Shown: positions 6,836-55,708, counted from the first letter of the stretch. The stretch: DNA of 64,000 nucleotides from Methanobacteriota archaeon (GCA_003139855.1 PLGY01000025.1:9289-73288); one strand, 5' to 3'. The notes: generated from the letters alone by a model not told the origin. A program made the numbers and translations.

Positions 6836-6940
6836 AGATCCTGTGCGGCCCCTTCCTCAACTCACTACTCATCCGAGATCAAGCTTTCTATGCGCGCGCA
6901 TCGACAGCGTTATTATCTGCGTCCTCGTGTAATTCACTGC

Positions 6941-9835: not shown

Positions 9836-10420
9836 TTATGTGTTGCCATTATTTAAAAATCTGGCTGCAGCGTATGCAACGATAATGAAGACCGGTGTAA
9901 GCAGGAAAGTGAAAATGGTGATCTGCGTGATATCGCCTGGCGGTATGGGTGGGTGAGTGCCCAAAAAATAATCCGCGTAATCGTTTGCAAAAAACCATAT
10001 GAGCGCGACGGCGACGAACCTCGGCCTCAGCTGTCGAATTAACATCACCGGCAGAATGAACTCGGCAGCCATCGCGACGTGCAAAAGAACCAACAGTGAG
10101 TAAAAACTACTGTCGATTGAAAAATAGAACCCAGCGAACGCTAAAATGACGAATACGGTCCACGTGCCGTATTTTGCCAATCCTATTGCGGTGATGAAAT
10201 TGACAAGATCGGAACTGCGCCTCTTACTCACGTAAACGGCGAGGATTGCCGCCGCGAGCATAGTGTACAGAGGGCAGTCTGGAATGAATATCCAATAAAC
10301 CGGGCTCGAAGAAACCAGCTGATCCCAGTAGTAGTAGAAGCCGATTAACGTTCCCGCGACGTTGATAATTATGATCGCAACTAATAGCGGCGTGTTTTCC
10401 AAGATACCGCGGAGTTTCAC
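9836..10420 (-). CDS. DUF1405-like integral membrane protein
   Basis: 194 aa with about 6 hydrophobic helices. It has a 4-nt overlap with the upstream acetyltransferase gene. Confidence 0.55.
   Translation of the reverse strand: MKLRGILENTPLLVAIIIINVAGTLIGFYYYWDQLVSSSPVYWIFIPDCPLYTMLAAAILAVYVSKRRSSDLVNFITAIGLAKYGTWTVFVILAFAGFYFSIDSSFYSLLVLLHVAMAAEFILPVMLIRQLRPRFVAVALIWFFANDYADYFLGTHPPIPPGDITQITIFTFLLTPVFIIVAYAAARFLNNGNT
9849..9860 (-). promoter_or_regulatory. TATA box for tRNA-Leu(UAG), embedded in the 3' end of the upstream CDS
   Basis: The minus strand reads TTTTTAAATAA about 25-30 nt upstream of tRNA position 1 (9826). Confidence 0.4.
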
Positions 10421-10995
10421 GTCGTGTATTCACTCCTAATCTCTCGAGCGGGCACACCGCCGACCAGAGCGTCGCTGGTGATGTCTCGGTTAACAAGAGA
10501 GCAAGCAGAAACCGTAGCTCCGCTTCCGATGACTACGCCTGCTAGGACAGTCGAGTTTGCTCCTATCAGAACATTTTTGCCGATTTCGATCGGGCCTTTT
10601 TTCCATTTGCCTATCAGGAATTCGTGACAAAGCAGGGTAGACCCGTATCCGATGATGGAGTTGTCGCCAATTTCTATAAGTTCAGGAAAAAAGATGTCAA
10701 AAGTGACTTCCAGACCGACAGAAACGTTCTTGCCGATTTTGATCCCAATTGAACGATATAGCGCGTTTTTTGTTTTCAGCGAAGGCATCGAGCCGCATAC
10801 GCGCACAACGACGTAGTTTAGGGCCACTCGCAGCGGGTTTTTGACTTTGGACCAGTCCCACATTGAGTTACGTTCGTGAGCCGCATACTCTGTTAATCGA
10901 CGCACGTAGTATTCAACGCCTATCTCTCGATTTATAGTTTTACCAAAACATTTAATTTCAATGCCGAGAGGATTCTGAGTGTAATTTTGGTTCAT
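10417..10995 (-). CDS. Hexapeptide-repeat (LbH) acyl/acetyltransferase
   Basis: 192 aa. Left-handed beta-helix repeats are visible (IGDNSIIGYGSTLL...IGKNVLIGANSTVLAGVVIGSGATV). Confidence 0.75.
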   Translation of the reverse strand: MNQNYTQNPLGIEIKCFGKTINREIGVEYYVRRLTEYAAHERNSMWDWSKVKNPLRVALNYVVVRVCGSMPSLKTKNALYRSIGIKIGKNVSVGLEVTFDIFFPELIEIGDNSIIGYGSTLLCHEFLIGKWKKGPIEIGKNVLIGANSTVLAGVVIGSGATVSACSLVNRDITSDALVGGVPAREIRSEYTT

Positions 10996-11031
10996 TTAAC
11001 TAGTAAGTCAATTGGAAAACGGAGGCCTGTC

Positions 11032-12345
11032 ATGTTTGGATCTTCCGGAATTCGCGGAGTGGCCAACAAGGAGCTGACCTCAGAATTGGCGCTCAGTGTT
11101 GGGCTAGCCGTCGGATCTCGATGCAAATCTGCCGTTATAGGCAGAGATCCTCGGATCGCAAGCGAGATGGTTGAATATGCGCTTATCTCAGGGCTCACCG
11201 CCTGCGGGTGTGACGTCACTCGAATCGGCCTCGTCTCGACGCCGACTCTTTCTTACGCAGCCCGAAACTACGAATGTGGGGTTATGGTTACCGCCTCACA
11301 TAACCCTGCTGAATATGTTGGCATCAAATTGTGGAACGCAGATGGCACTTCATTTAATAGCGAGCAGCAGGAAGACATCGAGTCATTGATTACGGAAGAA
11401 GAATCGCACCCTGCGTACAGGGGTAACCGGGCCGGCTGGGATGCTATTGGCAACATTGCGTCTTATGGCAATGCCATCGATGACCATAAAAAGAACATCC
11501 TTAGTCATTTCACCGACGTAAGCTGTCGCGCGGTTGTCGATTGCGGCTCAGGCGCAGGGGGGACGATCACACCATATGTGCTTAGAGAGATGGGGTGCGA
11601 CATCATCACGCTGAATGCGCAGCCCGATGGATTTTTCCCCGCAAGAAATCCAGAGCCAATAGAAAGCAACTTAAACCTCCTCATTGAAGCTGTGCGAAGC
11701 TTCCACGCCGATATCGGTATAGCCCACGACGGTGACGCTGATCGTATGATGGCGGTGGACCGAAGTGGCAGGTATATTGCCGGCGATGAAATGCTCGCAT
11801 TGTTCGGCGTGAACGAGGCAAAAAAGATTGCAGTTTATCCCGTTGACGTTTCGCACATGGTCGATGACGTTCTCACCTGCGCAATTCATCGAACACGCGT
11901 AGGTGACGTGTACGTCGCGGAAGAGGTCAAGCGTGCAGGAGCGGACTTCGGTGGCGAAAGTAGCGGCAGCTGGATTTTTCCCCGGATTTCATATACTCCG
12001 GACGGCATCTATGCGGCGGCACTGATCGTGTCGATCGCTAATCAGCAATCGATCTCCGACGTGATTGCACGGTTTCCTAAGTATCACATTTTGCGCGGGT
12101 CGGTCGCCTACAACGGTGGAAGCGATCCAATGGCTGCGATTACTGAAGAATTGCGTTCTCTCGAATATGTTGAGATAATGACTATTGATGGCGTAAGGCT
12201 TGATTTTGAAGACGGTTGGATACTAGTGAGAAGATCAGGAACAGAACCGAAGATAAGGATTACTGCGGAGGCAAGAGACTCAGCGATGGCAAAACGGCTT
12301 TATGAAAAAGCGTCAGCAATAGTGCAGAGGCACATGCCATGTTAG
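11032..12345 (+). CDS. glmM: Phosphoglucosamine mutase / phosphohexomutase
   Basis: The N-terminus is MFGSSGIRG and the active-site loop is TASHNPAEYVGIKL. The metal loop DGDADR is present. GGAGG lies 7 nt upstream of the ATG at 11032. Confidence 0.85.
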   Translation: MFGSSGIRGVANKELTSELALSVGLAVGSRCKSAVIGRDPRIASEMVEYALISGLTACGCDVTRIGLVSTPTLSYAARNYECGVMVTASHNPAEYVGIKLWNADGTSFNSEQQEDIESLITEEESHPAYRGNRAGWDAIGNIASYGNAIDDHKKNILSHFTDVSCRAVVDCGSGAGGTITPYVLREMGCDIITLNAQPDGFFPARNPEPIESNLNLLIEAVRSFHADIGIAHDGDADRMMAVDRSGRYIAGDEMLALFGVNEAKKIAVYPVDVSHMVDDVLTCAIHRTRVGDVYVAEEVKRAGADFGGESSGSWIFPRISYTPDGIYAAALIVSIANQQSISDVIARFPKYHILRGSVAYNGGSDPMAAITEELRSLEYVEIMTIDGVRLDFEDGWILVRRSGTEPKIRITAEARDSAMAKRLYEKASAIVQRHMPC

Positions 12346-13571
12346 CGGTCATACTTGGTGCAGGCGAAGGCACACGGATGCACCCATTGACCTATAACCG
12401 CCCCAAAGTCATGCTCCCGGTACTAGGCACGCCCATACTCGAACGTATAGTTAGCTCATGTGTCAAAGCAGGCATTTTGCGCGTAATAATCGTAACCGGT
12501 TACCACGAGGAAGCAATTCGTTCACATTTCGATAAAGCGGAGCTCGGAGCCCAGATTGAGTACGTCAGGCAAGAAAAGCAATGCGGGACGGCTAACGCAA
12601 TTAACCAGGTTAGGGATCTCGTAGATGAGCGTTTTCTCGCGCTAAATGGTGATAGCTTGGTAAGTCCACGCACATTGAAGCTCCTCGCAGAGACAGCCCC
12701 AGACCGATTAGTCCTTATCGCGGCAAAAAGAGTGAAAGAACCGAGCAACTACGGCATACTTGAAGTCACTGACGACGCTGTGGTTCGAATAGCGGAAAAA
12801 CCCAACGAACCCGTGTCTGATTTGGCAAACCTCGGTATTTACGCCTTTGAGCCGGATATTTTCGAGTGCATAGCTGAGACGCGGAAGTCGGCAAGGGGGG
12901 AGTACGAGATCACTGACACTATACAATTGCTGATCGATCAGGGCTACCGCGTTGGGTACGTGAAGGTTGAGGAGCAGTGGATCGACATAGGAAGGCCCTG
13001 GGACCTGTTGAGCGCGAATGAGCTTCTGTTGCAGACGCTCGAGAGCGCGAATGAAGGGGTCGTCGAGCCTCTTGCGACGTTAAGAGGTGTGGTGCGAATC
13101 GGGCGTGGGTCAGTCATAAAAAATGGCGCGTACGTTACTGGGCCGGTCATAATCGGCGAAGGATGTGAAATCGGGCCCAACTGCCTCTTACGCGCAGGTG
13201 CCTGCATAGGGAATCGAGTCAAGATCGGCAATGCCGTCGAAGTGAAAAACTCAATCATAATGGATGACAGCAAAATCGGACACTTGTCGTACGTCGGGGA
13301 CAGCATCATCGGCATGCGCTGCAATTTCGGTGCCGGTACCACAGTCGCCAATCTGCGCTTTGACGAGAAGCTTATTAAACTCGGGGGCGCGGACACCGGT
13401 AGGCGGAAACTAGGCGTCATCATGGGTGACGACGTGCGCACAGGCATTAACAGCATGATAAACGTCGGCACGTCGATTGGTCCCGGATCGACACTCGGCG
13501 TGGGTGCCGTGGCTGCCGGAGTTTATCCTCCAGGGTCGCGAATCGAATCGAAATCTACGACGCTGCAATGA
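12339..13571 (+). CDS. Bifunctional sugar-1-phosphate nucleotidylyltransferase / LbH acetyltransferase (archaeal GlmU-like)
   Basis: 410 aa. The N-terminus is LGAGEGTRMHPLTYNRPKVMLPV and the C-terminus carries a hexapeptide beta-helix. It overlaps the glmM stop by 7 nt. Confidence 0.8.
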   Translation: MLAVILGAGEGTRMHPLTYNRPKVMLPVLGTPILERIVSSCVKAGILRVIIVTGYHEEAIRSHFDKAELGAQIEYVRQEKQCGTANAINQVRDLVDERFLALNGDSLVSPRTLKLLAETAPDRLVLIAAKRVKEPSNYGILEVTDDAVVRIAEKPNEPVSDLANLGIYAFEPDIFECIAETRKSARGEYEITDTIQLLIDQGYRVGYVKVEEQWIDIGRPWDLLSANELLLQTLESANEGVVEPLATLRGVVRIGRGSVIKNGAYVTGPVIIGEGCEIGPNCLLRAGACIGNRVKIGNAVEVKNSIIMDDSKIGHLSYVGDSIIGMRCNFGAGTTVANLRFDEKLIKLGGADTGRRKLGVIMGDDVRTGINSMINVGTSIGPGSTLGVGAVAAGVYPPGSRIESKSTTLQ

Positions 13572-13641
13572 AGCGCATCGCTTGATTGTAGATGATAAGC
13601 TATTTAGCCGATGGAGCTCGTAAGCTCAGAGGAGACGAGAC

Positions 13642-14946
13642 ATGCGTATTGCCGTTTTTATTGGGACGCGAGCGGAGCTAATAGGAATGGCCTCTTTCCT
13701 CAAGGAGGTCGACAAGAACCCTGATACAGAACTCGTTTTCACTCATACCGGACAACATTTTGACCGCGAAATGTATGAGAACTTGCTTAAGGATTTGGGT
13801 CTTCGAGACCCAGATTATGGCCTGTCGCTTGGCAACATGAGCTACAATAAGCAGATCTCCGGCATGATCAATCAAATCGATGATATATTGGATAAAGCGC
13901 GGCCTGACTTTGTGTTTGTTCAAGGCAACGTAATCTCGTCTTTTAGTGCAGCCATTGCATCGTCGATGAATTTTATTCCTGTCGGCCACATCGAATCGGG
14001 CTATCGCTCACTGCGGGACTTACACAGTGATGTAAGAAGGAAAGTCATCGAAATGTGCTCGACGATGTTTTTTCCTGTATGCAACACGGCCTACCTAAAC
14101 CTGCTTGAGGAGTGCTACGATCCTGATTGTGTCCACTACTTAGGTGATCCTCTCGTTGACGCACTTTTGGACTACAAGCCGACGGCGCAAAAGGCGGATT
14201 CTATCAAAGCGTTCTGTGAAGACGAACGACCGATTGTTTCAGTTGCGGTTAGGCTGCCGTGGAACATCGGAAGCCCAGAGGCGCTCGGCAGAATCACAAA
14301 AGCGGCGACTAGTCTCGATGAGTACAACGTTGTCATGTTATTACACCCAAATACCAGGAGACATCTCGTCAAATTCGGCCTAATGGAAAAACTGCAATCG
14401 TGTGAGAACATTCGTCTTATTGATCCATTGGCCTACACTGGCTTCATTAAACTGATGATGGACTCTCACGTGTTAGTCACCGATTCCGGGGGGCCTCAGA
14501 AAGAAAGCGCCATTTTGGAAACGCCGTGCATCACGCTGTCCGATAGCACCTATTACATTGAGACCGTTGAAAATGGGTGGAATAGGGTACTAGGAAATAG
14601 CCCGCACCCGGATGTCTTGACTGAAGCCGTACGCGCTACGGCGCCGGGAAAGAAAATAAGCGACCCGCTTAACGACGGGAAATCATCACAGCGAATAATT
14701 TCTAAAGTCGTTCAGCTGTTCGAAGAAAGACGTCTCACAATTTCTCCGCAAGTGTCAAAAACGAGCTTCTATGCTCACCTAACGGCTTTTTCTGAAGGGT
14801 TCATGGGCATGCGCACACGCGCCACCCCTCACGCTGACGGGACAGTTCAAGCGATGTTCGACCAAACAGGAGAAATCACGTTCGATCCGACGCAGGCTCA
14901 GATTGTGCGTACTTTCGGGCCAGTGCGAAACCCGAAAGAAATATGA
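13642..14946 (+). CDS. wecB: UDP-N-acetylglucosamine 2-epimerase (WecB family) with about 65-aa C-terminal extension
   Basis: 434 aa. It shows FTHTGQHFDREM, HIESG and VTDSGGPQKES, the epimerase_2 family pattern. Confidence 0.8.
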   Translation: MRIAVFIGTRAELIGMASFLKEVDKNPDTELVFTHTGQHFDREMYENLLKDLGLRDPDYGLSLGNMSYNKQISGMINQIDDILDKARPDFVFVQGNVISSFSAAIASSMNFIPVGHIESGYRSLRDLHSDVRRKVIEMCSTMFFPVCNTAYLNLLEECYDPDCVHYLGDPLVDALLDYKPTAQKADSIKAFCEDERPIVSVAVRLPWNIGSPEALGRITKAATSLDEYNVVMLLHPNTRRHLVKFGLMEKLQSCENIRLIDPLAYTGFIKLMMDSHVLVTDSGGPQKESAILETPCITLSDSTYYIETVENGWNRVLGNSPHPDVLTEAVRATAPGKKISDPLNDGKSSQRIISKVVQLFEERRLTISPQVSKTSFYAHLTAFSEGFMGMRTRATPHADGTVQAMFDQTGEITFDPTQAQIVRTFGPVRNPKEI

Positions 14947-14961
14947 AAAGTAAGGTTATGG

Positions 14962-15963
14962 ATGATTGACAGCTATACCTTCTTTTTGCTTGTAGTCTCG
15001 GTTCTGCTTTCATTTGTAGTCACGTTTGTTGTGACGCCGCCGCTTATCAAGAGAATGAAATCTGCGGGGGTGTCTGGCGTTGACGTTCACAAAGTTGAAA
15101 AGCCTGAGATTTCTGAAATGGGCGGCTTTGCTATCTACGCAGGGTTCGCTACGTCCATGATCTTCGCAGCTTTTTTGGGACTCAATTTAATGGTAATAGT
15201 GGTTTCACTGCTTGTGGTAACCCTATCAGCAATGGTGGGGGCCTTAGATGACGTGATGCACCTCGGCGCCATAGAAAAGCCGCTCCTCGGCTATTTCGCT
15301 GGCGTTGCGCTCATATTGACTGCGGGGAGCGACCCCTACCTTCTCGTGCCTTTGTTAGGAACGTTTTGGCTTGGACTCGCGTGGATCCCTATTGTGCCTT
15401 TTGCCGTCACAGCTGGGGCCAATGCAGTCAACACCTTTGCTGGATTCAATGGGATGGAGATCGGTTGCGGCGCCATAGTGACGTTTGCATTAATAGTCGT
15501 TGGACTGGTGTTGATATCGCCGACGGGAGGCGTCGCGGGACTTTTGATATTGGCGGCGCTACTAGGGGCCCTCTTAGGGTTTTTTCCGTATAATCGATAT
15601 CCTGCCCGCATATTTACGGGCGATATAGGGACGCTCTGCATCGGTAGCGCTATCGCCGTTGGCGCCATAGCGCTAAAAATCGAATTATTTGCGGTCATCG
15701 CGGCTTTGCCTTATATCGTCAACTACGGCATGGTATTGCTCTCTGTTGGAAAGGTAACCGAGAGTCACTTGTTTACGGCCACGCAGGTAACAAATGACGG
15801 GTACTTGACCCCCTCAAAGTCGTATTCCGTTCGAAAGAACTTGTCCGATTACATCTTGAGCAGGAGATCAATGAAAGAACCGGCACTAGTGAAAACGCTT
15901 TGGACTTTGTGCATAATATCCGCCGCAATAAGCATTTTGTTGGCGGTCTTGTCGGCTCGTTGA
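14962..15963 (+). CDS. Polyprenyl-phosphate HexNAc-1-phosphate transferase (MraY/WecA/AglH family)
   Basis: 333 aa polytopic protein with GALDDV, NAVNTFAGFNGMEIG and FTGDIGTLCIG motifs. Confidence 0.75.
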   Translation: MIDSYTFFLLVVSVLLSFVVTFVVTPPLIKRMKSAGVSGVDVHKVEKPEISEMGGFAIYAGFATSMIFAAFLGLNLMVIVVSLLVVTLSAMVGALDDVMHLGAIEKPLLGYFAGVALILTAGSDPYLLVPLLGTFWLGLAWIPIVPFAVTAGANAVNTFAGFNGMEIGCGAIVTFALIVVGLVLISPTGGVAGLLILAALLGALLGFFPYNRYPARIFTGDIGTLCIGSAIAVGAIALKIELFAVIAALPYIVNYGMVLLSVGKVTESHLFTATQVTNDGYLTPSKSYSVRKNLSDYILSRRSMKEPALVKTLWTLCIISAAISILLAVLSAR

Positions 15964-16137
15964 GACGTATGGTTCACGGCGACAGACTGGAAAAATGGCA
16001 ATGACTGCCTCTGGCAGTGTATAAGGACCAACAGCCTTGTGTGGCCGCAAGCATTGAGCCGTCCGTGGGTCGTCTGGTCACGACTCACGGAATTGGCTGT
16101 GGAAGTAGCTAGTTTTGCCCAATCTTAGCCGCTGGGG

Positions 16138-18453
16138 TTACAGCAGCTGTTGTGAATTGATGCTAACTGCGTCGATCGGAGATGTGTATCTCGCATCAAG
16201 AGTTCCGTTGGATGGGGGGTCCATCCATAGACTTACATACAGTGTGCTTGTTGACCCCAGAGTGGGCAGAATTTTTAACGGGCTAGAGCTGCCGCTTGTT
16301 GTAAAATCGATCGGCACTGCCTTAGTCTCCCCGACATTTAACGTCACTGGCTTGTACTGGTCTTGCCAAGCGATGTGCAAGCTCATCGGATCGCTGGCGT
16401 AATTCGTTACATAAACAACTCCTGAGTCGCCGTTCACTTCGACGTTGCTGATCAACGCGTATTGTGTAGGCGTTTGGGCGAGCTGGCTTTGGTTAATTTG
16501 GTAAATCACTACACCGTCATTCTGGAATACCTCTGTCATCACTGTGGGATCTGGAACGAAGTTCGAGAATGGAAATCCCCAGACGCTGCTCGAGTAATTT
16601 GCTTTGATCGGATCATAAACGAAGTAGTCTATGCCCAATTTTTTTGCTATGAGTAACTTGCTGGCGGAATCTGTGGAGCCGTTCATGAAATTGGAGAGGT
16701 CTGTGAGCTGTGATAACTGGTGGGTGACAACGTAGGAGTTTTCTGAGTCGGTTGATATTGCAGCTCGGGCACTGGTGAACGTGCTAATGTATTGCAAGAA
16801 AGTTGGATCTGACAATATGGTGTCATTGGATGTTGTGTGTTGATTGAGCCATTGCAGTGCGCTTATTTCGTCACCGGTGAGTTTTGGTTCCTGTGCGTTT
16901 ACGGCAAGGGCGCTGGCCGCGGCAATGTGAAATACCGGCGATAACACAGAGATAACCACAAAAGCGATGATAAGCATCGAGCGCATTGCCCGATTGTCTC
17001 GCCTCCGTCGCAAGCCTTGAACGCGCGGCTGCGGTTCATACGCGATCCGAAAAACAAGGAGTGCAGCGAGTATTGACAGCGGGAGAACGAGATAGAGTAT
17101 CGATTGCACCCCGCCTGCATTTTTCAAAGTGCCCGGTATGACGCGTTGAATAAGATAAGGCAAGTGCGGCGCCGCTACTCCTATAACACCGATTAGCGCA
17201 GGTACCAATGCCACGAGGAGCCAGCTTGAAACAAGCATGTTTCGCAGGTTTGTCTCAGCTCGGTCCCATAGGGCTGTTTTGTAAACCAGAATACTCAGAA
17301 TTGGGATGAGGCCAAGACTTGAAACCATGAAAGCTAGCGAGAACGCCGTCTGAGCCGAAAACACAAGGGAAACCGCAATTACTCCAGCCATCGCGATTAA
17401 AACCAAAATTATGATCAAATTAAGGCCATTTTTTGTCGTGTGGCCAACTACGGCAAACAGTCTGTCACGGCGTTTGTACGGTGACCGTAGATCGGTGCTC
17501 CCGCTAAAAAGCGCGCCTACTGCTGCGAGCCCCAACATGCCTGCCGACAAAGTCAAGATCTCCGGAATGCTCCATGGGAGAGTTTGGTACTGGCTATACA
17601 TGTACAGCCACCAGGGGGCGCTAATTATGACTGGCAGCACGACCATTGCGCTTATCTGCTTCAAATGCATTCGAGTGCCAAGATTAATCAGCACATAGAG
17701 TATGATGAAGACGGTGAAAATGTAATAAAACGTCGTGGTAGAAAGCCTGTGCGTAAAAATAAGCGTTGTTACGGTAAGAGCGCCTAGAAATGTATATTTT
17801 GATGTCAGGATAGACTTACCTACATCGTTCTTAATTGCAGCGTAGAGGTAGTATGTCGCAAGCATCATCAGTATCAGCCCGAAGCTTGACGCAACGATGT
17901 ATTGCGGCCCCAAAATTGCTGGGTTTGGGCTAAACGTCGCCGAAAAAAACGATGCCAAGGCGGCTATTCGCGTGTCGTCTGTGATTTTCTTTACTACGAC
18001 AAAAGTGGTGAGAACGAAGGCTACCAATATGAACGCCGAAAACCCCTGCAGCAGAACGAGCAGTTCGGAATTCATGCTAATATTCACTCCACCGAGTATA
18101 GCGACTGCGCCAAATATGATGGGGAGGCCAGGCGGTTCAATGTTATACCAGACGTCACCAGGGGCGGCGTTTGGATCATTTGCGCTTATCACGTTGGTTT
18201 GTTGGATATTTTTTGCTAAGGCGATGTTCGTCGCGGTGTCGTGATCAATCAAACCGGTGCCGCCGCTCCAGTATCCAGCGTAGCCCACGGTGATAAGCAG
18301 CAACGCGAGGGCCGTGAGCAAGATGCCCACCGACACTTTCTTGCCCAGCTCTCTCGAACGCGTTCGCTCACCCTTGTGACTGTGCTGCGTCGGTGGCGGC
18401 TGAGGTGATCCTAGTCTAGAATACCCTTGATTCTGCTCGTATCGCTCTCTCAT
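16138..18453 (-). CDS. Large polytopic membrane protein with C-terminal extracytoplasmic domain (GT-C-fold-like; function unknown)
   Basis: 771 aa with more than 12 predicted helices, followed by a soluble tail of about 250 aa that is rich in N-x-S/T sequons. I found no WWD(Y/W)G STT3/AglB motif by eye. Confidence 0.5.
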   Translation of the reverse strand: MRERYEQNQGYSRLGSPQPPPTQHSHKGERTRSRELGKKVSVGILLTALALLLITVGYAGYWSGGTGLIDHDTATNIALAKNIQQTNVISANDPNAAPGDVWYNIEPPGLPIIFGAVAILGGVNISMNSELLVLLQGFSAFILVAFVLTTFVVVKKITDDTRIAALASFFSATFSPNPAILGPQYIVASSFGLILMMLATYYLYAAIKNDVGKSILTSKYTFLGALTVTTLIFTHRLSTTTFYYIFTVFIILYVLINLGTRMHLKQISAMVVLPVIISAPWWLYMYSQYQTLPWSIPEILTLSAGMLGLAAVGALFSGSTDLRSPYKRRDRLFAVVGHTTKNGLNLIIILVLIAMAGVIAVSLVFSAQTAFSLAFMVSSLGLIPILSILVYKTALWDRAETNLRNMLVSSWLLVALVPALIGVIGVAAPHLPYLIQRVIPGTLKNAGGVQSILYLVLPLSILAALLVFRIAYEPQPRVQGLRRRRDNRAMRSMLIIAFVVISVLSPVFHIAAASALAVNAQEPKLTGDEISALQWLNQHTTSNDTILSDPTFLQYISTFTSARAAISTDSENSYVVTHQLSQLTDLSNFMNGSTDSASKLLIAKKLGIDYFVYDPIKANYSSSVWGFPFSNFVPDPTVMTEVFQNDGVVIYQINQSQLAQTPTQYALISNVEVNGDSGVVYVTNYASDPMSLHIAWQDQYKPVTLNVGETKAVPIDFTTSGSSSPLKILPTLGSTSTLYVSLWMDPPSNGTLDARYTSPIDAVSINSQQLL

Positions 18454-19853: not shown

Positions 19854-21011
19854 ATGGTCAATCGGATGTCTAAAGAAAGGTGCAGAATCCTGTTTGTAAC
19901 TTCTTTCGACGTTCGACTGATTGACAGCGTGAAAACAGACGGCAGCATGATTCGTCTGCTCAAAGATTTCTTGCTGAGATACGAGGATCTGTGCGATCTA
20001 TTCCTGTTTACAGGAGACACAAGCAAATTTGATTTGGCCCCCTCCATAGAACACGTTCCGTCGGCGGTGTTCGAGAAATTTGGTCTTTGGCACTCGTCAT
20101 ATGCTGTCTTAAGCACATTCAGAATCGCCAAGCGATTGAAAGGAAATGCGCTAGTCAGGGGGTTTTCTGCTGCGTGTCCCGGGGCAATAGTCGCAGCAAA
20201 GGCAAAAAAGAAGCCCTCACTCGTTTTTTATGAATATAACTGGTCGTATCAAGTTACGCACGTGAACAAAGGCAAAATCCTTGGAACAGTTGCAAGACTT
20301 ATCGAGAACTATATCATAAAAAACGCCGATGTTTTAGTCACGCGAAACCAGTCTCTTGAAACAGAGCTTTGCGAAAGAGGCGCTAAGAGAGTGGTCATCA
20401 TACCATTGACGTTCGATGAAGACATTTTCAAACCAGGTATTGATGTAACTGAGCTCAAAAAGACTTACGGCGTCCGAGATGAAAAGATACTCATGTATAT
20501 TGGAAGACTGCATCCAGTCAAACGGCTTGACATCCTTCTCAAGGCAGCTGCCCAGCTTCATGAGCACTTCAAGCTCTTTATAGTCGGTTCTGGAGCTCTG
20601 GAAGATGAGCTCAAAGACATGACAAAATCCCTTGGCATTGCGGACAAGGTGGTTTTCACGGGCGCAGTGCAATATTCCGACGTGCCGAAATTCATGAATA
20701 TGGCAGACTTGATCGTGCTGACCAGTTCAATAGAAGGGCAGCCGAGGGTTCTGATAGAGGCGATGTCTTGCGGGACGCCGGCGGTTGGAACGAACGTGTT
20801 CGGAATTAGGGATACTATAGATGACGGGGTGACAGGCTATCTCGCCTCTGACGATCCTGATGACATCGCAAGAAAAATTTCGGAGGCCTTGGCAAACGAT
20901 GCGTTTCCACAAATGTGCAGGTCAGTCGCACTTGAGAAATACTCGAACGAAGCCAGTGCGTTGAAAGAAAAGGCGCTATGCAAAGAGCTTTTGGCGCTCG
21001 ACAGCTACTAA
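19854..21011 (+). CDS. GT-B group-1 glycosyltransferase (CAZy GT4-like)
   Basis: 385 aa. The C-terminal domain is YIGRLHPVKRLD...SSIEGQPRVLIEAMSCGTPAVGT (E-x7-E motif). Confidence 0.8.
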   Translation: MVNRMSKERCRILFVTSFDVRLIDSVKTDGSMIRLLKDFLLRYEDLCDLFLFTGDTSKFDLAPSIEHVPSAVFEKFGLWHSSYAVLSTFRIAKRLKGNALVRGFSAACPGAIVAAKAKKKPSLVFYEYNWSYQVTHVNKGKILGTVARLIENYIIKNADVLVTRNQSLETELCERGAKRVVIIPLTFDEDIFKPGIDVTELKKTYGVRDEKILMYIGRLHPVKRLDILLKAAAQLHEHFKLFIVGSGALEDELKDMTKSLGIADKVVFTGAVQYSDVPKFMNMADLIVLTSSIEGQPRVLIEAMSCGTPAVGTNVFGIRDTIDDGVTGYLASDDPDDIARKISEALANDAFPQMCRSVALEKYSNEASALKEKALCKELLALDSY

Positions 21012-21394: not shown

Positions 21395-21982
21395 CTATTG
21401 CGGGGGCTTCTGGGTTTTGACGACCTGCTCGTCTGGAAGTTCGATGTGCTGATCTAGCTCGTGCTCAAACATGTTGGTCAAAACGGCTTTCAGCTCCTTT
21501 CGAGGAATGTTTCCGGTATCTTTCAAGCGGCACTTCTCCAAATACTCCTCGTAAGTGCAGATGAATCGTGCCGGATTGCCCGCATAGACACTGTTCGGCG
21601 GCACGTCTTTCGTGACCACAGATCCAGCCCCTACCACGCTATTCGGACCGATGACTATGCTGGGCATTATAATCGCGTTAACGCCGATGAAAGAGTTATC
21701 CCGGATAATTATGGGGCCGAACTTGCTGCCTTCGAAGTCCGCGTTCTGCTCGAGCACCCATTTGGCTCCGTCGTGAGTCATAAAGGTGACGCCGTACGTA
21801 ATCTTGCAATTATTTCCGATCGAAATTAAGTACGGTTCGGTGCTCAAATTGCAGTAGTAGAGTTGACAGTTGCTGCCTACGCGTACTCCTAATCTTCGTG
21901 CTAGGCGAACGCGGGCGTTTCCTGTGCTTATCCTGAATAAAACGATGTTCAATCTGTAAGCGATTTTTTCTAGCCAGTTCAT
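21395..21982 (-). CDS. Hexapeptide-repeat O-acetyltransferase (maltose/galactoside acetyltransferase-like)
   Basis: 195 aa with LbH repeats IIRDNSFIGVNAIIMPSIVIGPNSVVGAGSVVTKDVPPNSVYAGNPARF. Confidence 0.75.
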   Translation of the reverse strand: MNWLEKIAYRLNIVLFRISTGNARVRLARRLGVRVGSNCQLYYCNLSTEPYLISIGNNCKITYGVTFMTHDGAKWVLEQNADFEGSKFGPIIIRDNSFIGVNAIIMPSIVIGPNSVVGAGSVVTKDVPPNSVYAGNPARFICTYEEYLEKCRLKDTGNIPRKELKAVLTNMFEHELDQHIELPDEQVVKTQKPPQ

Positions 21983-22110: not shown

Positions 22111-23217
22111 GTGATAGGTGGCACTTTATTATTATTAGGTAGATATGTTGCACCACAACTTTGCGTTATGTTCAAAGCAATTCCCGTAGAAAGAAAAAGT
22201 AGAGTTATCCATGATTTTCCCTACAGTGTCGAGAGCAGGCGATGTCCACACGCAGGTATCGTCAATATCACAAAGAGCGGGCACTGCGTTTTTGATTGCG
22301 CATATTGCTATGCGAAGAGCTACCCTTGGTCTGCGAACGGACATTTCATTGAGGTGTACGAAAATACGCCCGAGCTGCTTGATAATGAATTAAGAACGAT
22401 TCGCACGTGTCCGCCTCTTTATTTTTGCGCCGTGACCGATCCATTTCAACCGTTTGACCTCGTGTGGAAAACTTCCCTCGACGCAATGCGCATCGCCGCG
22501 AACCATGGCGTTTTTTTTACTATCGTCACTAAATCAGACCTCGCTTTGAAAGTCCTTGAAACTCGCTGGGCAGATTATGAAAGATTTCGCGTTTCCTTCA
22601 CGTGTGAGGCTCTCAACCGTAACAAGCTCAGCGCGATCAGCAATGCGCCAGACGTCTTTCGCAGGCTGAGAGCAATCGAAAGGCTCGTGAGTGCTGGCGT
22701 CAACGTCTCAGTGAGAGTTGATCCGATAATCTCTGGGTTGACTGATGATTACGGTGAGTTAGACGAACTGTTTCAGACGTTGAGTTCGATGGACGTTTGC
22801 CACGTTACCACGTCAACTGGCAGTTTCAATTCCCGGGCGTTTCGGAAATTACTCGCCAGGATCGAGGAAGGGGGCTATGCGGAGTCAGCTGCGCTAGTCC
22901 GAAGTCGCTATGTCTTTAATGGAAAAAAGTACACGCTAAACCTGAAGGACCGACTGGCGCTTTACACATATCTCGCGTCGCTTTGCGATCATTACGACAT
23001 GGGTCTCTCTCTTTGCCAAGAACCGCTTAATCTCATACCTGGTGACGCCACACGATGCCGCACTCTTGGAGAGTTGGCTATTCGAGATCGGTCCGGGCGG
23101 TTCATTCCAGTTTGCGGTTCTGACTGCTTAAACGCTTGTCCAAACGCGGAATATCCGCCTTGCAAGAACGAGAACCTTCGCACGGAATACCCCTTCAAAT
23201 GGCGGACGCTTAGATAG
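22111..23217 (+). CDS. Radical SAM enzyme (SplB/DNA-photolyase-like subfamily), Cys-rich C-terminus
   Basis: It has the CxxxCxxC motif CVFDCAYC and a C-terminal CGSDCLNACPNAEYPPC cluster. The start is uncertain (GTG 22111 or ATG 22168). Confidence 0.7.
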   Translation: MIGGTLLLLGRYVAPQLCVMFKAIPVERKSRVIHDFPYSVESRRCPHAGIVNITKSGHCVFDCAYCYAKSYPWSANGHFIEVYENTPELLDNELRTIRTCPPLYFCAVTDPFQPFDLVWKTSLDAMRIAANHGVFFTIVTKSDLALKVLETRWADYERFRVSFTCEALNRNKLSAISNAPDVFRRLRAIERLVSAGVNVSVRVDPIISGLTDDYGELDELFQTLSSMDVCHVTTSTGSFNSRAFRKLLARIEEGGYAESAALVRSRYVFNGKKYTLNLKDRLALYTYLASLCDHYDMGLSLCQEPLNLIPGDATRCRTLGELAIRDRSGRFIPVCGSDCLNACPNAEYPPCKNENLRTEYPFKWRTLR

Positions 23218-23325: not shown

Positions 23326-24246
23326 ATGATTGCGTTAGTTACAGGTGGCTACGGGTTTATAGGAAACCAGATTGCCGAGCTAATCTCGACGGAATATTCG
23401 GAAGTGCGCATACTTGACAATCTAAGCAATGCAGCGCGGGTAGTTCGATTGCCGAACGTGCGCCTAATCAAGACGGATATCAGAGATACAGACGCGACGA
23501 ACGAGGCATTTGATGATGTTGACGTAGTTTTCCACACCGCCGCTCGCGTCGACGTAGTCGCAAGCACCAGAGAGCCATTCGTCGATATGGATAACAACGT
23601 TAAGGGAACTTTATCAGTCTGTGAGGCTGCTCGAAGAAATGACGTGTCTAAGCTCGTTTACTCATCTAGCGCTGCCGTCTATGGAAATGCTGATTCTTTT
23701 CCCACAGATGAGGCGCAGCCGACACGTCCTCTATCTCCCTATGCTGTGAGCAAGTATTGCGGCGAACTCTACATGGCTGCTTATCATCATTTGTATGGTC
23801 TCAGCACGCGGTCTTTGCGATACTTCAACGTTTATGGTCCTTATCAGCGTCCGGAAAACGCGTACTCTGGCGTGATTAGTAAATTCTTCTATAATGCAAC
23901 AAGAGACGCGCCTCTGGAAATACACGGCGACGGCAATCAGACCAGGGACTTCGTGTATGTAACAGATGTGGCGAATGCGAATCTGCTGGCAGCAAATAGC
24001 GACGCACCAAATGCAGTTGTGAACATAGGAAGCGGGCGCGAGACGTCTATAAATGAACTAGCCACGATAATCAAGGAAATGGCCCTCTCTCATTCAAGCA
24101 TCGCGCACGGCGCCCCGCGCATCAGTGACGGCAGGAGATCACTGGCGGATATTAGGAACGCAAAGCGAATCATCAACTATGAGCCACAAATCCACATAGC
24201 TGAGGGCCTTGCAAAGCTCAGGCAGTTCTTTCGCGGTACCCGCTGA
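23326..24246 (+). CDS. NAD-dependent nucleotide-sugar epimerase/dehydratase (UDP-hexose 4-epimerase-like SDR)
   Basis: 306 aa with GGYGFIGNQ (GxxGxxG) and a YAVSK (YxxxK) catalytic motif. Confidence 0.85.
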   Translation: MIALVTGGYGFIGNQIAELISTEYSEVRILDNLSNAARVVRLPNVRLIKTDIRDTDATNEAFDDVDVVFHTAARVDVVASTREPFVDMDNNVKGTLSVCEAARRNDVSKLVYSSSAAVYGNADSFPTDEAQPTRPLSPYAVSKYCGELYMAAYHHLYGLSTRSLRYFNVYGPYQRPENAYSGVISKFFYNATRDAPLEIHGDGNQTRDFVYVTDVANANLLAANSDAPNAVVNIGSGRETSINELATIIKEMALSHSSIAHGAPRISDGRRSLADIRNAKRIINYEPQIHIAEGLAKLRQFFRGTR

Positions 24247-24632: not shown

Positions 24633-25256
24633 TCATAAGGTCAGCTTTGCCAGATCGAACGCTTCAGCTTTACTATGATTATGAATCGCTAGCATTCCGG
24701 CCTGAAAAGCGCGATACTGTGCGAGACCAGCTATCGCTTCTGTTCGCACGTAGTACTTATCGTTCTGCGTTTCGTGGAGCTTTAAAGCCTCGAGCTTGAT
24801 GTTGAAGAAACGCGTAATGTTGACAAAAACTCGCGGAGTAAACTCGAGTGACACGCTCGGAGACTCATAGAGAAAAATGTCATTCACGTGCCTGTACAGT
24901 GTCATAGTCGCAAGGGCGGTATTTCGATGATCTTGGTGATTGTCGTGTGGACTGTGCGTATATATTCTATCGGGCTGTAATGCATTTACCTTTGCCTGAA
25001 TAAGCTCGATTGTCTGAAAGTCAGTTGGAATCATGCGATCTTTGAGATTCTCAATAGTGATACTGTCCGCGCCAAGGATCTGTGCAGCTTTCTTACACTC
25101 ACTGACTCTTTTGTCACTTGGCCCCCCTGCTTCGCCTTTGGAAAGTACAAGAAGGTGTACGTCGTCGCCTTCGTGTTTGTGATGGGCTAGCGTTGCGTAG
25201 CAACCTAGCTCACAATCATCTGGATGAGCTCCGATCGCTAGAATTACTTTACTCAA
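24633..25256 (-). CDS. PIG-L / LmbE family N-acetylglucosaminyl deacetylase
   Basis: It has the AHPDDCELG and HDNHQDH metal-binding motifs. A TTG start at 25256 gives the family-typical N-terminus MSKVILAIGAHPDD. That start overlaps the stop of the upstream gene in TTGAGTAA. The track ORF extends to 25313. Confidence 0.8.
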   Translation of the reverse strand: MSKVILAIGAHPDDCELGCYATLAHHKHEGDDVHLLVLSKGEAGGPSDKRVSECKKAAQILGADSITIENLKDRMIPTDFQTIELIQAKVNALQPDRIYTHSPHDNHQDHRNTALATMTLYRHVNDIFLYESPSVSLEFTPRVFVNITRFFNIKLEALKLHETQNDKYYVRTEAIAGLAQYRAFQAGMLAIHNHSKAEAFDLAKLTL

Positions 25257-26862
25257 ATAAACCACCAGTGCATAATTGTTTAATAGTGTTGAACAATGCG
25301 TCCATCGAAGCATCGGTGCGCAAAGGTACGTCTGCGTTAAAACTTATATTTCCTTCAAGCGCATGCAACCATTGGGCACAGGTCGATCGTATCCCTATGT
25401 TAGTTGTATAATCGATGACAGAGGGAATCACGTTGAGCGTTTTCGACGTATTGCCCACGATCGAGCGATCTCTCGCGATCTGATTTCGTTCAAATCGTGT
25501 TTTCAACTCATTTTGCATACTTACAATCGTAGCTATTCTCTCTTTAAAGCCATCAAGTTTCCTATCTGCGACTGCACTTTTCAAGTTGTCAAGCGCGCAG
25601 ATGACGCCGTCGACGTCCGCGAGCATATCGTCCAACTCGCCCTGGACGATCTCCACGTCGCACTTCTCATCCTTCGCCAGCTTGTATTGAGATCGTACCC
25701 TCAGTAGTTCGAGAATTGCGTCCAGCTGTCCAACGCCTGCGTAGGTATCTTTCGGTCTCCACATCGAGACGACCGGGAATCGCATCCCAAACTCTCCAGC
25801 GATCTTCTCAGCTCTGCTCAGATATTCGGCGCCTCCGTGGCCGCCGACGTAGAACGAAAGGCCTATGCCGCTAAAGGCGATGAGCATCGCCTCCGCTCGC
25901 AGCGACACGTTGGGTAACATCTGTCCCAGGGCGGAGCGTAGATCCCCCGGAAACTTTACAGTTGTGGTGCACGAGCGACACTTCGCCACGAGCATATGAT
26001 CGGGTACGTGCGTCATCTCCACGTCAGCTTTTCCGCCGCACGGGCAATGATACCAAACAGGCATGGGTGGCTTCGTAGCTAGGTTCTTCTGCGACTCGGC
26101 CATCAATTTAGCGTACTGGTCGTAGTTTTCCAACAGAAAAGCGATCTCTTCAGTAAACACCTGTTGGCATTGGGAAAACCGCGCGAATGCGGTTGTATAC
26201 CCACACTCTTCAATGAGGTATGCGAAAAAGAATGCGTTAAAATCAGCCGCGTTCGTGCTTCTCTCATACGCCCTATCGATAACATCAGACACGACGCGCG
26301 TGTCGAGGTCGACCTCCGGAACCGGCAGCCTCAAACGTTTCGCGTATTTCACAACCGAATCGGACGACTCGCTCGCCCAGCGTTCGATGTCGCTTTTTAG
26401 CCTTACGAGTTCGTCGCGGTCTGGCTTCGGAACAACGCGCATAAGCTTGTTGTAGTACGTCGGAGCAACCGGCAAGTGGAGGGTCAGCGTGCCGTTTCTG
26501 TTTCTGACGCTCGGCAGCTGCGCTTCTCGGAACCACCGCTCATCAGCGAAGTCCTGGTCGGCAAAACAAAAGAGCTCAACTACAGGACAGCCAAGTCTCT
26601 CTCGCAACCGCTCGGCCACCGCGTGGACGAGCACCACCTTGCGCACGACCCCACTGTAGGGCAAGAAGTTAGGCTGATGGGCAGACATCAAAACAATTCC
26701 TTCATAATCTGCTTGAAGCGGGATTCGAGAATCGTTATGAAACGCGCTGACGTGTTCAGCAAACGCTTTGCGCTTGCTTCGCATCGCGTGGTCGGGGTAA
26801 ATAGCGTTGCTTGCAACAACTCGCGTGAGTTCCTGCAGATTCTTGCATTGATCTCCTTTCAT
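25249..26862 (-). CDS. BshC-like (bacillithiol cysteine-ligase family-like) protein with inserted Cys4 zinc ribbon
   Basis: 537 aa, the same size class as BshC. SAHQPNFLPYSGVVRKV...CPVVELFCFADQDFADE resembles the BshC GQQxGLxxGPLYxxxK...PVxPxFWxAxEDHDxDE pattern. GGHGGAEYLSRAEKIAGEFGMRFPVV resembles AGPGExxYW...G.KMPxV. The C-terminus looks like a coiled coil. There is an extra CPCGG-x21-CRSC segment. This assignment is from memory and was not searched. Confidence 0.5.
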   Translation of the reverse strand: MKGDQCKNLQELTRVVASNAIYPDHAMRSKRKAFAEHVSAFHNDSRIPLQADYEGIVLMSAHQPNFLPYSGVVRKVVLVHAVAERLRERLGCPVVELFCFADQDFADERWFREAQLPSVRNRNGTLTLHLPVAPTYYNKLMRVVPKPDRDELVRLKSDIERWASESSDSVVKYAKRLRLPVPEVDLDTRVVSDVIDRAYERSTNAADFNAFFFAYLIEECGYTTAFARFSQCQQVFTEEIAFLLENYDQYAKLMAESQKNLATKPPMPVWYHCPCGGKADVEMTHVPDHMLVAKCRSCTTTVKFPGDLRSALGQMLPNVSLRAEAMLIAFSGIGLSFYVGGHGGAEYLSRAEKIAGEFGMRFPVVSMWRPKDTYAGVGQLDAILELLRVRSQYKLAKDEKCDVEIVQGELDDMLADVDGVICALDNLKSAVADRKLDGFKERIATIVSMQNELKTRFERNQIARDRSIVGNTSKTLNVIPSVIDYTTNIGIRSTCAQWLHALEGNISFNADVPLRTDASMDALFNTIKQLCTGGLFE

Positions 26863-26994: not shown

Positions 26995-28224
26995 GTGCGA
27001 AGTGATACGGTGAAAGCCATTGTCTTAGCTGCAGGTGAAGGAACACGATTAAGGCCATTCACACTGACACAACCGAAAGCAATGGTACCGGTGGCTAACA
27101 GGCCCATTCTTGAATACGTGATCGATTCTCTTGCAGGTTGCGGCGTCACTGACATCAGTTTGGTAGTCGGCTACAAAAAAGAAAAAGTAATGAACTATTT
27201 TGAGGGTGGCAAAAAATTCGGCGTTAAAATAAACTATGTTGAGCAGCCGCAGCAGCTCGGAACTGCTCACGCTATAAAGTTGGCCGAAGACTCAATCGAG
27301 GAAAACTTCCTAGTTCTAAATGGCGACAATCTCACCAGCCCGCAAGCTATAGAAGAAGTTATGAGCAATGCATCAGGCGACGTGACGCTCCTTCTGACCG
27401 TGAAAGAAAACGTTAAGGGCTATGGAGTCGTCACGACTGAAGGCAACCGCGTCACTCAAATAGTCGAAAAGCCCGGTACGGATATTAGCCATTATATCAA
27501 TACGGGTATCTACGTTTTTGCTCCTGCTGCCTTCAATGAGATACCTTACACAAAGATATCTTCTAGGGGTGAATACGAGATAACAGATACTATCCAAAGG
27601 ATGATCGAGAAGCAGTATGACGTCAAAGGCGTCCACACTACCTCCATGTGGATCGATGCTAGTTACCCGTGGGATTTGCTAAACGCAAACGCGGCAGTGC
27701 TTGCTTCTATTAAAGAGGCTTCTGCCCACGAAAACGGCCAAATCGAAGACGATGCTAAAGTGAGGGGAAGCGTCATTGTCGGCGAAAACTCGATAATACG
27801 TTCTGGGTCTTATGTGCTCGGGCCGGTCGTCATAGGTAGAGACGCTGAGATTGGGCCTAACGTGACTATACTCCCGTCGACGAGCATCGGAAATGGCGTT
27901 ACCATCGACTCGTTTACCGAGGTGCGAAATTCCTTAGTCATGAACGACGTGCGACTGGGCTCTCACTCTCTCGTCGCAAATTCTGTCATTGGAAAAAATA
28001 CAATGATCGGTTCCCATTTCATCACGGAGCAAACGAAGCTTGCTATGCCATTTCTTGACGGAGAACTGCATCACGTAATGAATTTAGGTGCGATAATCGG
28101 CGAGAATTGTCGTTTCGGGCATGGCATTCTCGTTGAAGCTGGAAAAATCATTGGTGTGCATTGCACCGTGGAATCTGCTACAACGATAAGAAAGAACGTC
28201 GATAACTATAGTAACATCGTTTGA
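26995..28224 (+). CDS. Sugar-1-phosphate nucleotidylyltransferase with C-terminal LbH domain (second GlmU-like paralog)
   Basis: 409 aa with LAAGEGTRLRPFTLTQPKAMVPV and C-terminal hexapeptide repeats. The true start may be the GTG at 27010 (VKAIVLAAGEG). Confidence 0.8.
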   Translation: MRSDTVKAIVLAAGEGTRLRPFTLTQPKAMVPVANRPILEYVIDSLAGCGVTDISLVVGYKKEKVMNYFEGGKKFGVKINYVEQPQQLGTAHAIKLAEDSIEENFLVLNGDNLTSPQAIEEVMSNASGDVTLLLTVKENVKGYGVVTTEGNRVTQIVEKPGTDISHYINTGIYVFAPAAFNEIPYTKISSRGEYEITDTIQRMIEKQYDVKGVHTTSMWIDASYPWDLLNANAAVLASIKEASAHENGQIEDDAKVRGSVIVGENSIIRSGSYVLGPVVIGRDAEIGPNVTILPSTSIGNGVTIDSFTEVRNSLVMNDVRLGSHSLVANSVIGKNTMIGSHFITEQTKLAMPFLDGELHHVMNLGAIIGENCRFGHGILVEAGKIIGVHCTVESATTIRKNVDNYSNIV

Positions 28225-55688: not shown

Positions 55689-55708
55689 GATCTACCTCCC
55701 GTCGATAG

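Follow-up and report, generated by a model that had tools for sequence, protein, structure and literature searches.

Does a gene pair that recalls the bacillithiol enzymes BshB and BshC make a low-molecular-weight thiol in an archaeon, or does it remodel an amino sugar at the cell surface? The question is raised by positions 24,633 to 26,862 of a 64,000-nucleotide stretch of DNA from a Methanobacteriota archaeon (GCA_003139855.1, PLGY01000025.1:9289-73288; the whole stretch is called the window below), where the gene for a 537–amino acid (aa) protein resembling BshC, the putative cysteine-adding enzyme of bacillithiol (BSH) synthesis, runs into the gene for a PIG-L/LmbE-family deacetylase. An earlier note, made from the sequence alone, had left the choice open between an archaeal thiol based on glucosamine (GlcN) and an aminoacylated glycan; of the two, the gene context favors glycan aminoacylation. 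The BshC-like family is real, conserved, and uncharacterized; it is an archaeal offshoot of the BshC fold, with an LmbE deacetylase coupled to it, and we see about an even chance that the pair constitutes an N-acyl exchange module, which would deacetylate and then N-aminoacylate an N-acetylglucosamine (GlcNAc) unit of a surface glycoconjugate.

A remote archaeal relative of BshC

The BshC-like protein is encoded by an open reading frame (ORF) at 25249..26862 on the minus strand, where the earlier note had placed it. It is predicted to be a soluble amide ligase, with no transmembrane segments predicted in its 537 aa, and consists of a Rossmann domain like that of class I aminoacyl-tRNA synthetases, a Cys4 zinc ribbon, and a C-terminal helical domain. 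The motif strings from which BshC had been recognized (HQPNFLPYSGVVRKV, PVVELFCFADQDFADE, GGHGGAEYL, and FGMRFPVV) are all present in the ORF, and the C terminus, described as helical, forms helices at residues 403-530 of an AlphaFold2 model.

Motif strings and size do match BshC, but the relationship is invisible to single-sequence hidden Markov model (HMM) searches and needs profiles or structure to emerge. The Pfam model PF10079 (Rossmann-like_BshC) scores the protein at 12.7 bits (E 0.08), under its gathering threshold of 27, the NCBIfam equivalog model for BshC (TIGR03998, cut-off 265.8 bits) has no match to it at E ≤ 0.1, and a single-sequence search of the PDB gave nothing significant. 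A WbqC-like identity, for which an HMM check had also been proposed, was rejected, as PF10079 and Zn_ribbon_CSL were the sole Pfam models matched at E ≤ 0.1. Homologs fall into two layers: close ones, 53-99% identical and with no Pfam match, from metagenome-assembled genomes (MAGs) labeled "Halobacteriota," "Methanomicrobia," or "Euryarchaeota archaeon," and a second, large set that is about 33% identical (E near 1e-80), with a PF10079 match in many of its members. One such 33%-identical relative from Bathyarchaeia scores 29 bits on TIGR03998 against the cut-off of 265.8.

Two family profiles were built, A1 from 21 sequences and A2 from 104, together with a set of 16 Bacillaceae BshCs (A3). 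PF10079 matches 10 of the 21 A1 members (best E 2.5e-14) while the window protein falls short, and its link to this Pfam family is therefore transitive. The best sequence match of A1 in the PDB is B. subtilis BshC (4WBD, E 6e-5). In hhalign, A2 aligns to A3 with a probability of 96.2% (E 2.4e-9, 314 columns) and to B. subtilis BshC alone with 94.9%, the latter sequence having been rebuilt from a frameshifted genome copy and being 99% identical to genuine full-length BshC. The AlphaFold2 model made from A2 has a predicted local distance difference test score (pLDDT) of 93.5 and a predicted TM-score (pTM) of 0.92; a Foldseek search of the PDB with this model ranks 4WBD first (E 2.8e-15, TM-score 0.58, 565 alignment columns spanning the full length, 12% identity), followed by class I LysRS (E 2e-11) and then ArgRS, GluRS, MetRS, MshC, and CysRS. 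The earlier note had staked its assignment on profile or structural similarity to BshC, and both are present.

The position of the synthetase HIGH motif, which is that of GGQQ in BshC, is taken by HQPN (residues 62-65; 26668..26679, minus strand), as placed by the profile alignment with BshC GGQQAG and by the AlphaFold2 model, where it directly follows the first β strand (E56-62). H62 and Q63 are found in 113 of 114 diverse near-full-length family members, the remaining one having a gap, and neither HIGH nor KMSKS is found in the BshC-like protein. Further motifs also align in position: GGQQxGLxxGPLY of BshC corresponds to AHQPNxxxYxG, AGEDHD to ADQDF, AGPGExxYW to GGxGGxEYL, and MPPVxPR to FPxVxxWRPxD, with FPxV at the place of MPPV. 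Most of the residues at these positions are replaced, and only Q63, K75, D102, G341, G344, and Y347 are retained of those invariant in BshC. Judged by sequence and model, the protein is thus a true but remote relative within the BshC superfamily, with a fold like that of class I aminoacyl-tRNA synthetases; it is not a BshC orthologue, since TIGR03998 is not reached and most invariant BshC residues are replaced. The most distant members (from Vicinamibacterales, Halorientalis, Nitrososphaera, and others) were considered as canonical BshCs and rejected at 0-27 bits on TIGR03998.

The zinc ribbon is a β subdomain at residues 269-304 (25951..26058, minus strand), with predicted ligands C273, C275, C295, and C298 in the pattern CPCGG-x17-CRSC. 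The earlier note had correctly seen a Cys4 motif, but with a spacing of x21, and had taken it for an insertion that BshC does not have. In the hhalign profile alignments, the ribbon instead falls on a stretch of B. subtilis BshC (NLFYEYEDERFLIEKDNGRFVIKELDLGW / NLFYEYEDERFLIEK...) that is of about equal length and contains no cysteine, and therefore it is not an insertion; no cysteine is invariant among the 16 Bacillaceae BshCs. The four cysteines are invariant in A1 and A2 and kept in 112 of the 114 diverse near-full-length members, the CxC...CxxC pattern being missing in a few of the most distant ones (Borrarchaeum, Halorientalis, and a Vicinamibacterales MAG), and the ribbon forms four strands in the AlphaFold2 model. 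By these alignments, a subdomain that BshC also has is here stabilized by metal through four cysteines, and this trait marks the family as a whole. Cysteine-rich zinc knuckles are common in the connecting peptides of class I synthetases, and for this reason the ribbon may be ancestral and have been lost in bacterial BshC. All four predicted zinc ligands are occupied, leaving no free site for a substrate thiolate, and the ribbon is therefore most likely a structural or docking element and not a recognition site for cysteine. A sub-threshold match to the CSL/DPH3 zinc finger (Zn_ribbon_CSL, PF05207; 19.7 bits, E 7e-4, gathering threshold 29.2) and the presence of radical SAM neighbors had suggested that identity, which was rejected: only 1 of 21 members has the match and the radical SAM neighbors are not the same between clades. 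The ribbon is treated here as a generic Cys4 zinc ribbon.

Pairing with a PIG-L/LmbE deacetylase

The downstream ORF is, as first described, a PIG-L/LmbE-family deacetylase, matching PF02585 at 90.9 bits (cut-off 28.2, E 1.2e-25) and containing the AHPDD and HQDH motifs. Its best NCBIfam match is BshB1 (TIGR04001), at 83-84 bits under the equivalog cut-off of 182.5, and its best PDB matches are 2IXD, TT1542, and BshB1 6P2T. The longest ORF, 24633..25313 on the minus strand, starts at an ATG and would give 226 aa; a TTG start gives 207 aa (MSKVILAIGAHPDD; 24633..25256, minus strand), and a GTG 9 nt upstream of it, the choice of the gene callers, gives 210 aa. The TAA stop of the BshC-like gene (25251-25249) overlaps the in-frame TTG (25256-25254) within TTGAGTAA, as had been claimed. 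The coupling junction (25249..25266, minus strand) reads ...GGT GGT TTA TTT GAG TAA, in which a Shine-Dalgarno–like GGTGG lies 5 nt upstream of the TTG. Twelve related loci, with proteins 59-93% identical, share the pattern GGTGrTTTrTTTGrrTAA; the TTG start, and with it the translational coupling that the earlier note had deduced from the overlap, are therefore well supported by sequence conservation.

The association extends beyond the window. Genes were called within ±7 kb of the BshC-like gene in 30 non-redundant loci and then clustered, and a PIG-L gene was found in 21 of the 30, in either gene order. The BshC-like gene comes first, with overlap, in the peat Halobacteriota clade. In Bathyarchaeia, Hadesarchaea, and Methanosarcinaceae, PIG-L precedes it at a distance of 1-20 nt; the two genes overlap in Methanomethylicus when taken as their longest ORFs and are 131 nt apart in Thermoplasmata. 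That the genes adjoin in either order in several phyla speaks for a common substrate.

Glycan genes at other loci

All 21 of the PIG-L–bearing loci also hold glycosyltransferase or sugar-nucleotide genes. GT2 enzymes occur in 11 loci and GT4 enzymes in 10, NAD-dependent epimerase/dehydratases in 9, hexapeptide acetyltransferases and DegT aminotransferases in 8 each, GFO/IDH/MocA proteins in 4, and FemAB-like proteins in 3, with GlmU also among the sugar-nucleotide genes. A UDP-sugar dehydrogenase (directly upstream of the BshC-like gene in Borrarchaeum), DUF354, a GNAT, and a radical-SAM/SPASM protein are single finds, each from one of the loci tested.

The GT2 enzymes are soluble proteins of 214-259 aa in Bathyarchaeia and proteins of 329-346 aa with C-terminal transmembrane helices in Thermoplasmata and Altiarchaeota. 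For one Bathyarchaeia GT2 (locus L002), the best NCBIfam models are AglJ and dolichyl-phosphate hexose transferase, and the sole PDB match is the Pyrococcus dolichyl-phosphate-mannose synthase 5MLZ. In Bathyarchaeia, glycosyltransferase, PIG-L, and BshC-like genes form a compact three-gene arrangement. In Hadesarchaea, the pair is directly followed by a processive-type GT2 of 533 aa with 6 transmembrane segments and domains like those of chitin and poly-N-acetylglucosamine synthases (L047, 11397-12998), which suggests that this pair modifies a GlcNAc homopolymer. Proteins with 9-17 transmembrane segments are common among the cluster neighbors; phmmer detected no homology among those of different clusters that would point to a shared GT-C partner. 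The FemAB/Acetyltransf_6 genes lie at 5985-7010 of a Thermoplasmata MAG locus (L046), 14461-15498 of an Altiarchaeota one (L051), and 11580-12587 of one from an "uncultured bacterium" MAG (L053). This is a family of aminoacyl-tRNA–dependent peptide-branch transferases, and its presence hints at peptide extension on the amino sugar.

The glycan island of the window

In the window, the pair stands at the end of a glycan island that runs, in order, through a hexapeptide transferase, a GlmM-like mutase, a first GlmU-like protein, a UDP-GlcNAc 2-epimerase, an AglH-like GlcNAc-1-phosphate transferase (PF00953), and a 771-aa protein (together 10417..18453), and then through a GT4, a hexapeptide acetyltransferase, a radical SAM protein, an epimerase, PIG-L, the BshC-like gene, and a second GlmU-like protein. 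The 771-aa protein (16138-18453, minus strand), conserved in the clade between the AglH-like protein and the GT4, is predicted to have about 12 transmembrane helices, followed by a soluble C-terminal domain of some 270 aa. Neither Pfam nor NCBIfam has a match for it, and its shape is suggestive of a glycosyltransferase of the GT-C type or of a divergent oligosaccharyltransferase. The hexapeptide acetyltransferase (21395-21982, minus strand), the radical SAM protein, of the PA0069/Rv2578c/SplB-like group (22111-23217, plus strand), and the NAD-dependent sugar epimerase/dehydratase (23326-24246, plus strand) are clade-conserved flanks; the conservation of the radical SAM protein beside the pair is confined to the peat clade. 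On the other side of the pair, and divergent from it, lies a clade-syntenic archaeal GlmU-type sugar-1-phosphate nucleotidylyltransferase/acetyltransferase (26995..28224, plus strand; TIGR03992, 373 bits versus 292).

The 385-aa GT4 (19854..21011, plus strand; PF00534), syntenic in the clade, is a candidate GlcNAc transferase that could feed the pair. Its five best PDB sequence matches are all structures of BshA (2JJM, 3MBO, 6N1X, 6D9T, and 5D00). The alignment is, however, confined to the C-terminal, nucleotide-sugar half, and the score on the BshA model TIGR03999 (92.5 bits versus 273.7) is about equaled by several other GT4 models. Across the window and the flanks retrieved, no gene near the pair reaches the cut-offs of BshA (TIGR03999) or BshB1 (TIGR04001), and the thiol-handling genes Brx, Bdr, and BstA were not seen in the window, which also speaks against a thiol.

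A second glycosylation trio, about 29 kb from the pair (54645-57875, minus strand), comprises a GT4 (375 aa), a GT2 (325 aa), and a membrane protein of the LPG_synthase_TM family. Elsewhere in the window, an archaeal DacZ-type diadenylate cyclase (8626-9498, plus strand), with a DAC domain and a DacZ_A sensor domain, implies cyclic di-AMP signaling in the organism. Two long tRNA-like genes of 93 and 101 nt (61129-61221 and 61737-61837, plus strand), called by Rfam and not by ARAGORN, are probably intron-containing archaeal tRNAs, and ARAGORN calls a tRNA-Pro and a tRNA-Leu (47597-47670 and 49122-49206, minus strand) that are not among the gathering-level calls of Rfam.

Distribution and paralogs

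That the BshC-like gene is real is borne out by 206 homologs at E ≤ 1e-3. The family is nevertheless small: when 1.84 billion cluster representatives were searched exhaustively with HMMER, 525 clusters at 50% identity were obtained (E ≤ 1e-3), whereas BshC, in a word-indexed search, has at least 2,923 relatives at E ≤ 1e-10 among 8,000 candidates scored. When one genome of each GTDB species was scanned, 49 loci emerged, nearly all archaeal, in peat and fen Halobacteriota MAGs, Bathyarchaeia, Methanomethylicus, Borrarchaeum (Asgard), Thermoplasmata, Hadesarchaea, Nitrososphaera, Altiarchaeota, Methanosarcinaceae, and one cultured haloarchaeon, Halorientalis persicus (L054), whose distant protein, devoid of the Cys4 motif, is the only haloarchaeal relative found.

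In a neighbor-joining tree, three sets are apparent, comprising the PIG-L–linked members (tree groups A1, which includes the window protein, and A2), a clade B without PIG-L, and a group C without PIG-L. In at least six MAGs there is another BshC-like copy, paralog B, of about 70% identity, and the occurrence of two paralogs per MAG fits diversification of a glycan better than it fits a core cofactor. At one locus (L020), paralog B has as neighbors Amt, PII, a metallophosphoesterase, FdhD, MetW, an alpha/beta-hydrolase (possibly MetX), and a pyridoxal phosphate enzyme of Cys/Met metabolism (possibly O-acetylhomoserine sulfhydrylase), a neighborhood that offered no functional clue. Group C copies lie directly downstream of a different radical SAM gene, beside DUF2284, DUF1890, and DUF1894.

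Two further observations concern the genomes surveyed. Two DASPOC01 loci labeled "Candidatus Bathyarchaeia" (L013 and L021) and one locus labeled "Candidatus Acidiferrales bacterium" (L029) contain genes 55-86% identical to the Halobacteriota-type genes of the window, and L013 is also syntenic with it; mis-binning or mislabeling probably accounts for the taxonomic labels of these records. In the B. subtilis-like genome CP024921.1 (L057, 2837-4454), bshC is broken up over three frames (59, 124, and 340 aa), reflecting either a natural bshC-null strain or sequencing errors.

Discussion

In the module that we propose, a glycosyltransferase would make a GlcNAc-bearing precursor from UDP-GlcNAc, which the adjacent GlmM and GlmU genes could supply. 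This enzyme would be a GT2 resembling dolichyl-phosphate-hexose synthases in most lineages and, in the window, probably the nearby GT4 or the AglH-like protein. The PIG-L/LmbE zinc deacetylase would then strip the N-acetyl group and expose the 2-amino group, which the BshC-like enzyme would re-acylate with an activated amino acid or another carboxylate, and the resulting N-aminoacyl-glucosamine unit would end up in a surface glycan or glycolipid, either by incorporation or by transfer. The structure of the two genes, their family assignments, the fold, and the conservation of the pair and its surroundings are established here; from them we infer this chemistry, and with it the acceptor, the acyl group, and the form of the donor, which could be ATP-activated or tRNA-bound. 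A precedent for the type of product is the N-glycyl-glucosamine in the wall of Halococcus morrhuae (Steber and Schleifer 1979, as cited in PMC4187196), likewise an amino acid amide-linked to the GlcN nitrogen in an archaeal surface polymer, although that polymer has no assigned enzyme and belongs to another lineage.

Several points weigh against this proposal. The GT partner is not constant (GT2, GT4, or processive GT2), and the acceptor therefore cannot be named. Paralog B (L020, L021, L023, L027, and L031) and group C (L001 and L028-L030) have no PIG-L or sugar genes nearby, and the synteny within the peat clade may merely reflect close kinship. We know of no archaeal N-glycan with N-aminoacyl-glucosamine from these lineages, and a literature search for archaeal LmbE proteins in connection with N-glycosylation found no relevant report. 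In vitro activity has never been shown for any enzyme of the BshC family (PMC5790435, PMC4360819); functional statements are therefore drawn from homology and context, and "ligase" is an assignment of this kind even for BshC. The closest characterized relatives of the GT4, the PIG-L protein, and the BshC-like protein are, moreover, the soluble-thiol enzymes BshA, BshB, and BshC.

This last point leads to the reading that survives best among the alternatives, namely that anaerobic archaea (peat methanogen-related Halobacteriota, Bathyarchaeia, Asgard, and others) make a soluble GlcN-based thiol, with a GT4 or GT2 placing GlcNAc on a small acid or polyol, PIG-L deacetylating it, and the BshC-like enzyme adding cysteine. 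The structural kinship with BshC (4WBD), the nearness of PIG-L to BshB1 in NCBIfam and to BcBshB in the PDB, the BshA matches of the GT4, the compact Bathyarchaeia trio, and UDP-GlcNAc from the adjacent GlmU genes are all consistent with such a route, and archaeal InterPro matches of the BshA and BshC types, mostly in Asgard, have been read as possible BSH capacity (PMC7278568). We nevertheless consider it unlikely. None of the three proteins reaches the equivalog cut-off of BshA, BshB, or BshC (92.5 of 273.7 bits for the GT4, 83.7 of 182.5 for PIG-L), and the usual partner at other loci is a GT2 of the dolichyl-phosphate-hexose synthase type, not a BshA-type GT4. The clusters, with their DegT, GFO, and acetyltransferase genes, several glycosyltransferases, and multi-span membrane proteins, are typical glycan loci, several MAGs have two paralogs each, and the fully liganded Cys4 site would leave no active-site zinc for thiolate recognition. 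The earlier note's statement that no GlcN-based thiol is known in Archaea agrees with the literature, as no detection of BSH in archaea is on record (PMC7278568) and a 2025 RefSeq BLAST survey contains no archaeal BshA/B/C pathway (PMC12719100). A glycoconjugate is favored over a thiol because no equivalog cut-off is reached, the GT partner varies, the clusters are glycan-like, paralogs are common, and the window has no thiol genes.

Modification of a membrane-lipid head group is decidedly improbable. In this case, the pair would deacetylate and then N-acylate a GlcNAc polar lipid, such as the glycosylphosphatidylinositol-like GlcN-archaetidylinositol or a GlcN-phospholipid, in place of a glycan linked to protein or wall. 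Glucosaminyl archaetidylinositol is a known methanogen lipid and the reaction that gave PIG-L its name acts on lipid-linked GlcNAc; in addition, the window GT4 matches the N-acetylglucosaminyl-phosphatidylglycerol synthase model (82.8 bits) and PimA-type structures, and the second glycosylation trio combines GT4, GT2, and LPG_synthase_TM. The GT4 scores are non-specific, however, and beside the pair there are no lipid-synthesis genes but genes for sugar-nucleotide modification. Archaea are not known to have an N-aminoacyl-glucosamine lipid, and nothing was found in the literature on a GlcN-archaetidylinositol deacetylase either. Finally, it is hardly probable that the BshC-like protein is not a sugar-amine ligase and instead serves tRNA-linked chemistry, the amidation of a uronic acid carboxylate with an amino acid, or as a scaffold, its place beside PIG-L reflecting only common membership of glycan clusters. 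In favor of such a role, the BshC reaction is itself undefined (PMC5790435), LysRS is the second-best structural match, FemAB-like genes are nearby in three loci, a UDP-sugar dehydrogenase stands directly upstream in Borrarchaeum, and paralogs B and C have no PIG-L. Against it, the HIGH and KMSKS of a true synthetase are missing, and unless the two proteins share a substrate, so tight an adjacency to PIG-L (overlap or 1-20 nt in most clades), in both orders and in several phyla, is difficult to account for.

Among characterized systems, BshC (YllA, 4WBD) is closest to the BshC-like protein, in size (539 versus 537 aa), in its Rossmann-like core with connecting peptides and C-terminal helical (coiled-coil) domain (PMC4360819), in the positions of its motifs, with ADQDF standing at GEDHD, and in its functional link to an LmbE-type deacetylase. 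The identity is only 12-16%, however, and the archaeal protein, which fails the TIGR03998 and PF10079 cut-offs, is not reported to carry the coiled-coil model PF24850 of canonical BshC and has a Cys4 ribbon where BshC has a cysteine-free β subdomain. The BshC-like gene is archaeal, lies in glycan clusters, and is physically paired with PIG-L, whereas BshC is bacterial, and B. subtilis bshC is transcribed alone or with panE, apart from bshB1 (PMC5790435, PMC4360819). The PIG-L protein shares PF02585 and the AHPDD and HxDH metal motifs with BshB/LmbE (BcBshB 2IXD, BshB1 6P2T, and TT1542), but it scores 83 bits against the BshB1 cut-off of 182.5, and it is about equally far from archaeal diacetylchitobiose deacetylases. 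MshB and MshC of mycothiol synthesis offer a similar succession, an LmbE deacetylase and then a cysteine ligase with the class I synthetase fold acting on a GlcN glycoside. MshC, however, is a close CysRS paralog with an active-site zinc, unlike the fully liganded Cys4 of the BshC-like protein, and is a weak structural match to the model (E 2e-3, TM-score 0.23-0.30).

The GT2, PIG-L, and multi-span membrane protein neighborhoods also recall amino-sugar editing on polyprenyl phosphate, as performed by ArnC/ArnD/ArnT, Francisella FlmF2/NaxD/FlmK, and mycobacterial PpgS/Rv3779. In those pathways, a GT2 polyprenyl-phosphate sugar synthase is combined with de-N-acylation on the lipid carrier and transfer by a multi-span GT-C enzyme. 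They differ from the proposed module in that they end at the free amine, with no re-acylating ligase, and use deacylases of other families.

The BshC reaction has never been reconstituted and its activated cysteine donor is unidentified (PMC5790435, PMC4360819), so that a separate, ancient archaeal branch provides an independent handle on the fold, and the translationally coupled pair could be a system in which to reconstitute this reaction at last. Archaeal "BshC" matches in domain databases, which have been read as possible bacillithiol capacity (PMC7278568), should not be counted as evidence for bacillithiol. If a thiol were the product, Archaea would have a first GlcN-based redox buffer, where surveys state that there is none (PMC12719100). 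If the glycan reading is true, the BshC-like family would offer a first candidate enzyme for N-aminoacyl-glucosamine in the envelopes of archaea, a chemistry known in Halococcus since 1979 but without an assigned gene, and would add an acetyl-for-aminoacyl swap to archaeal glycan biosynthesis.

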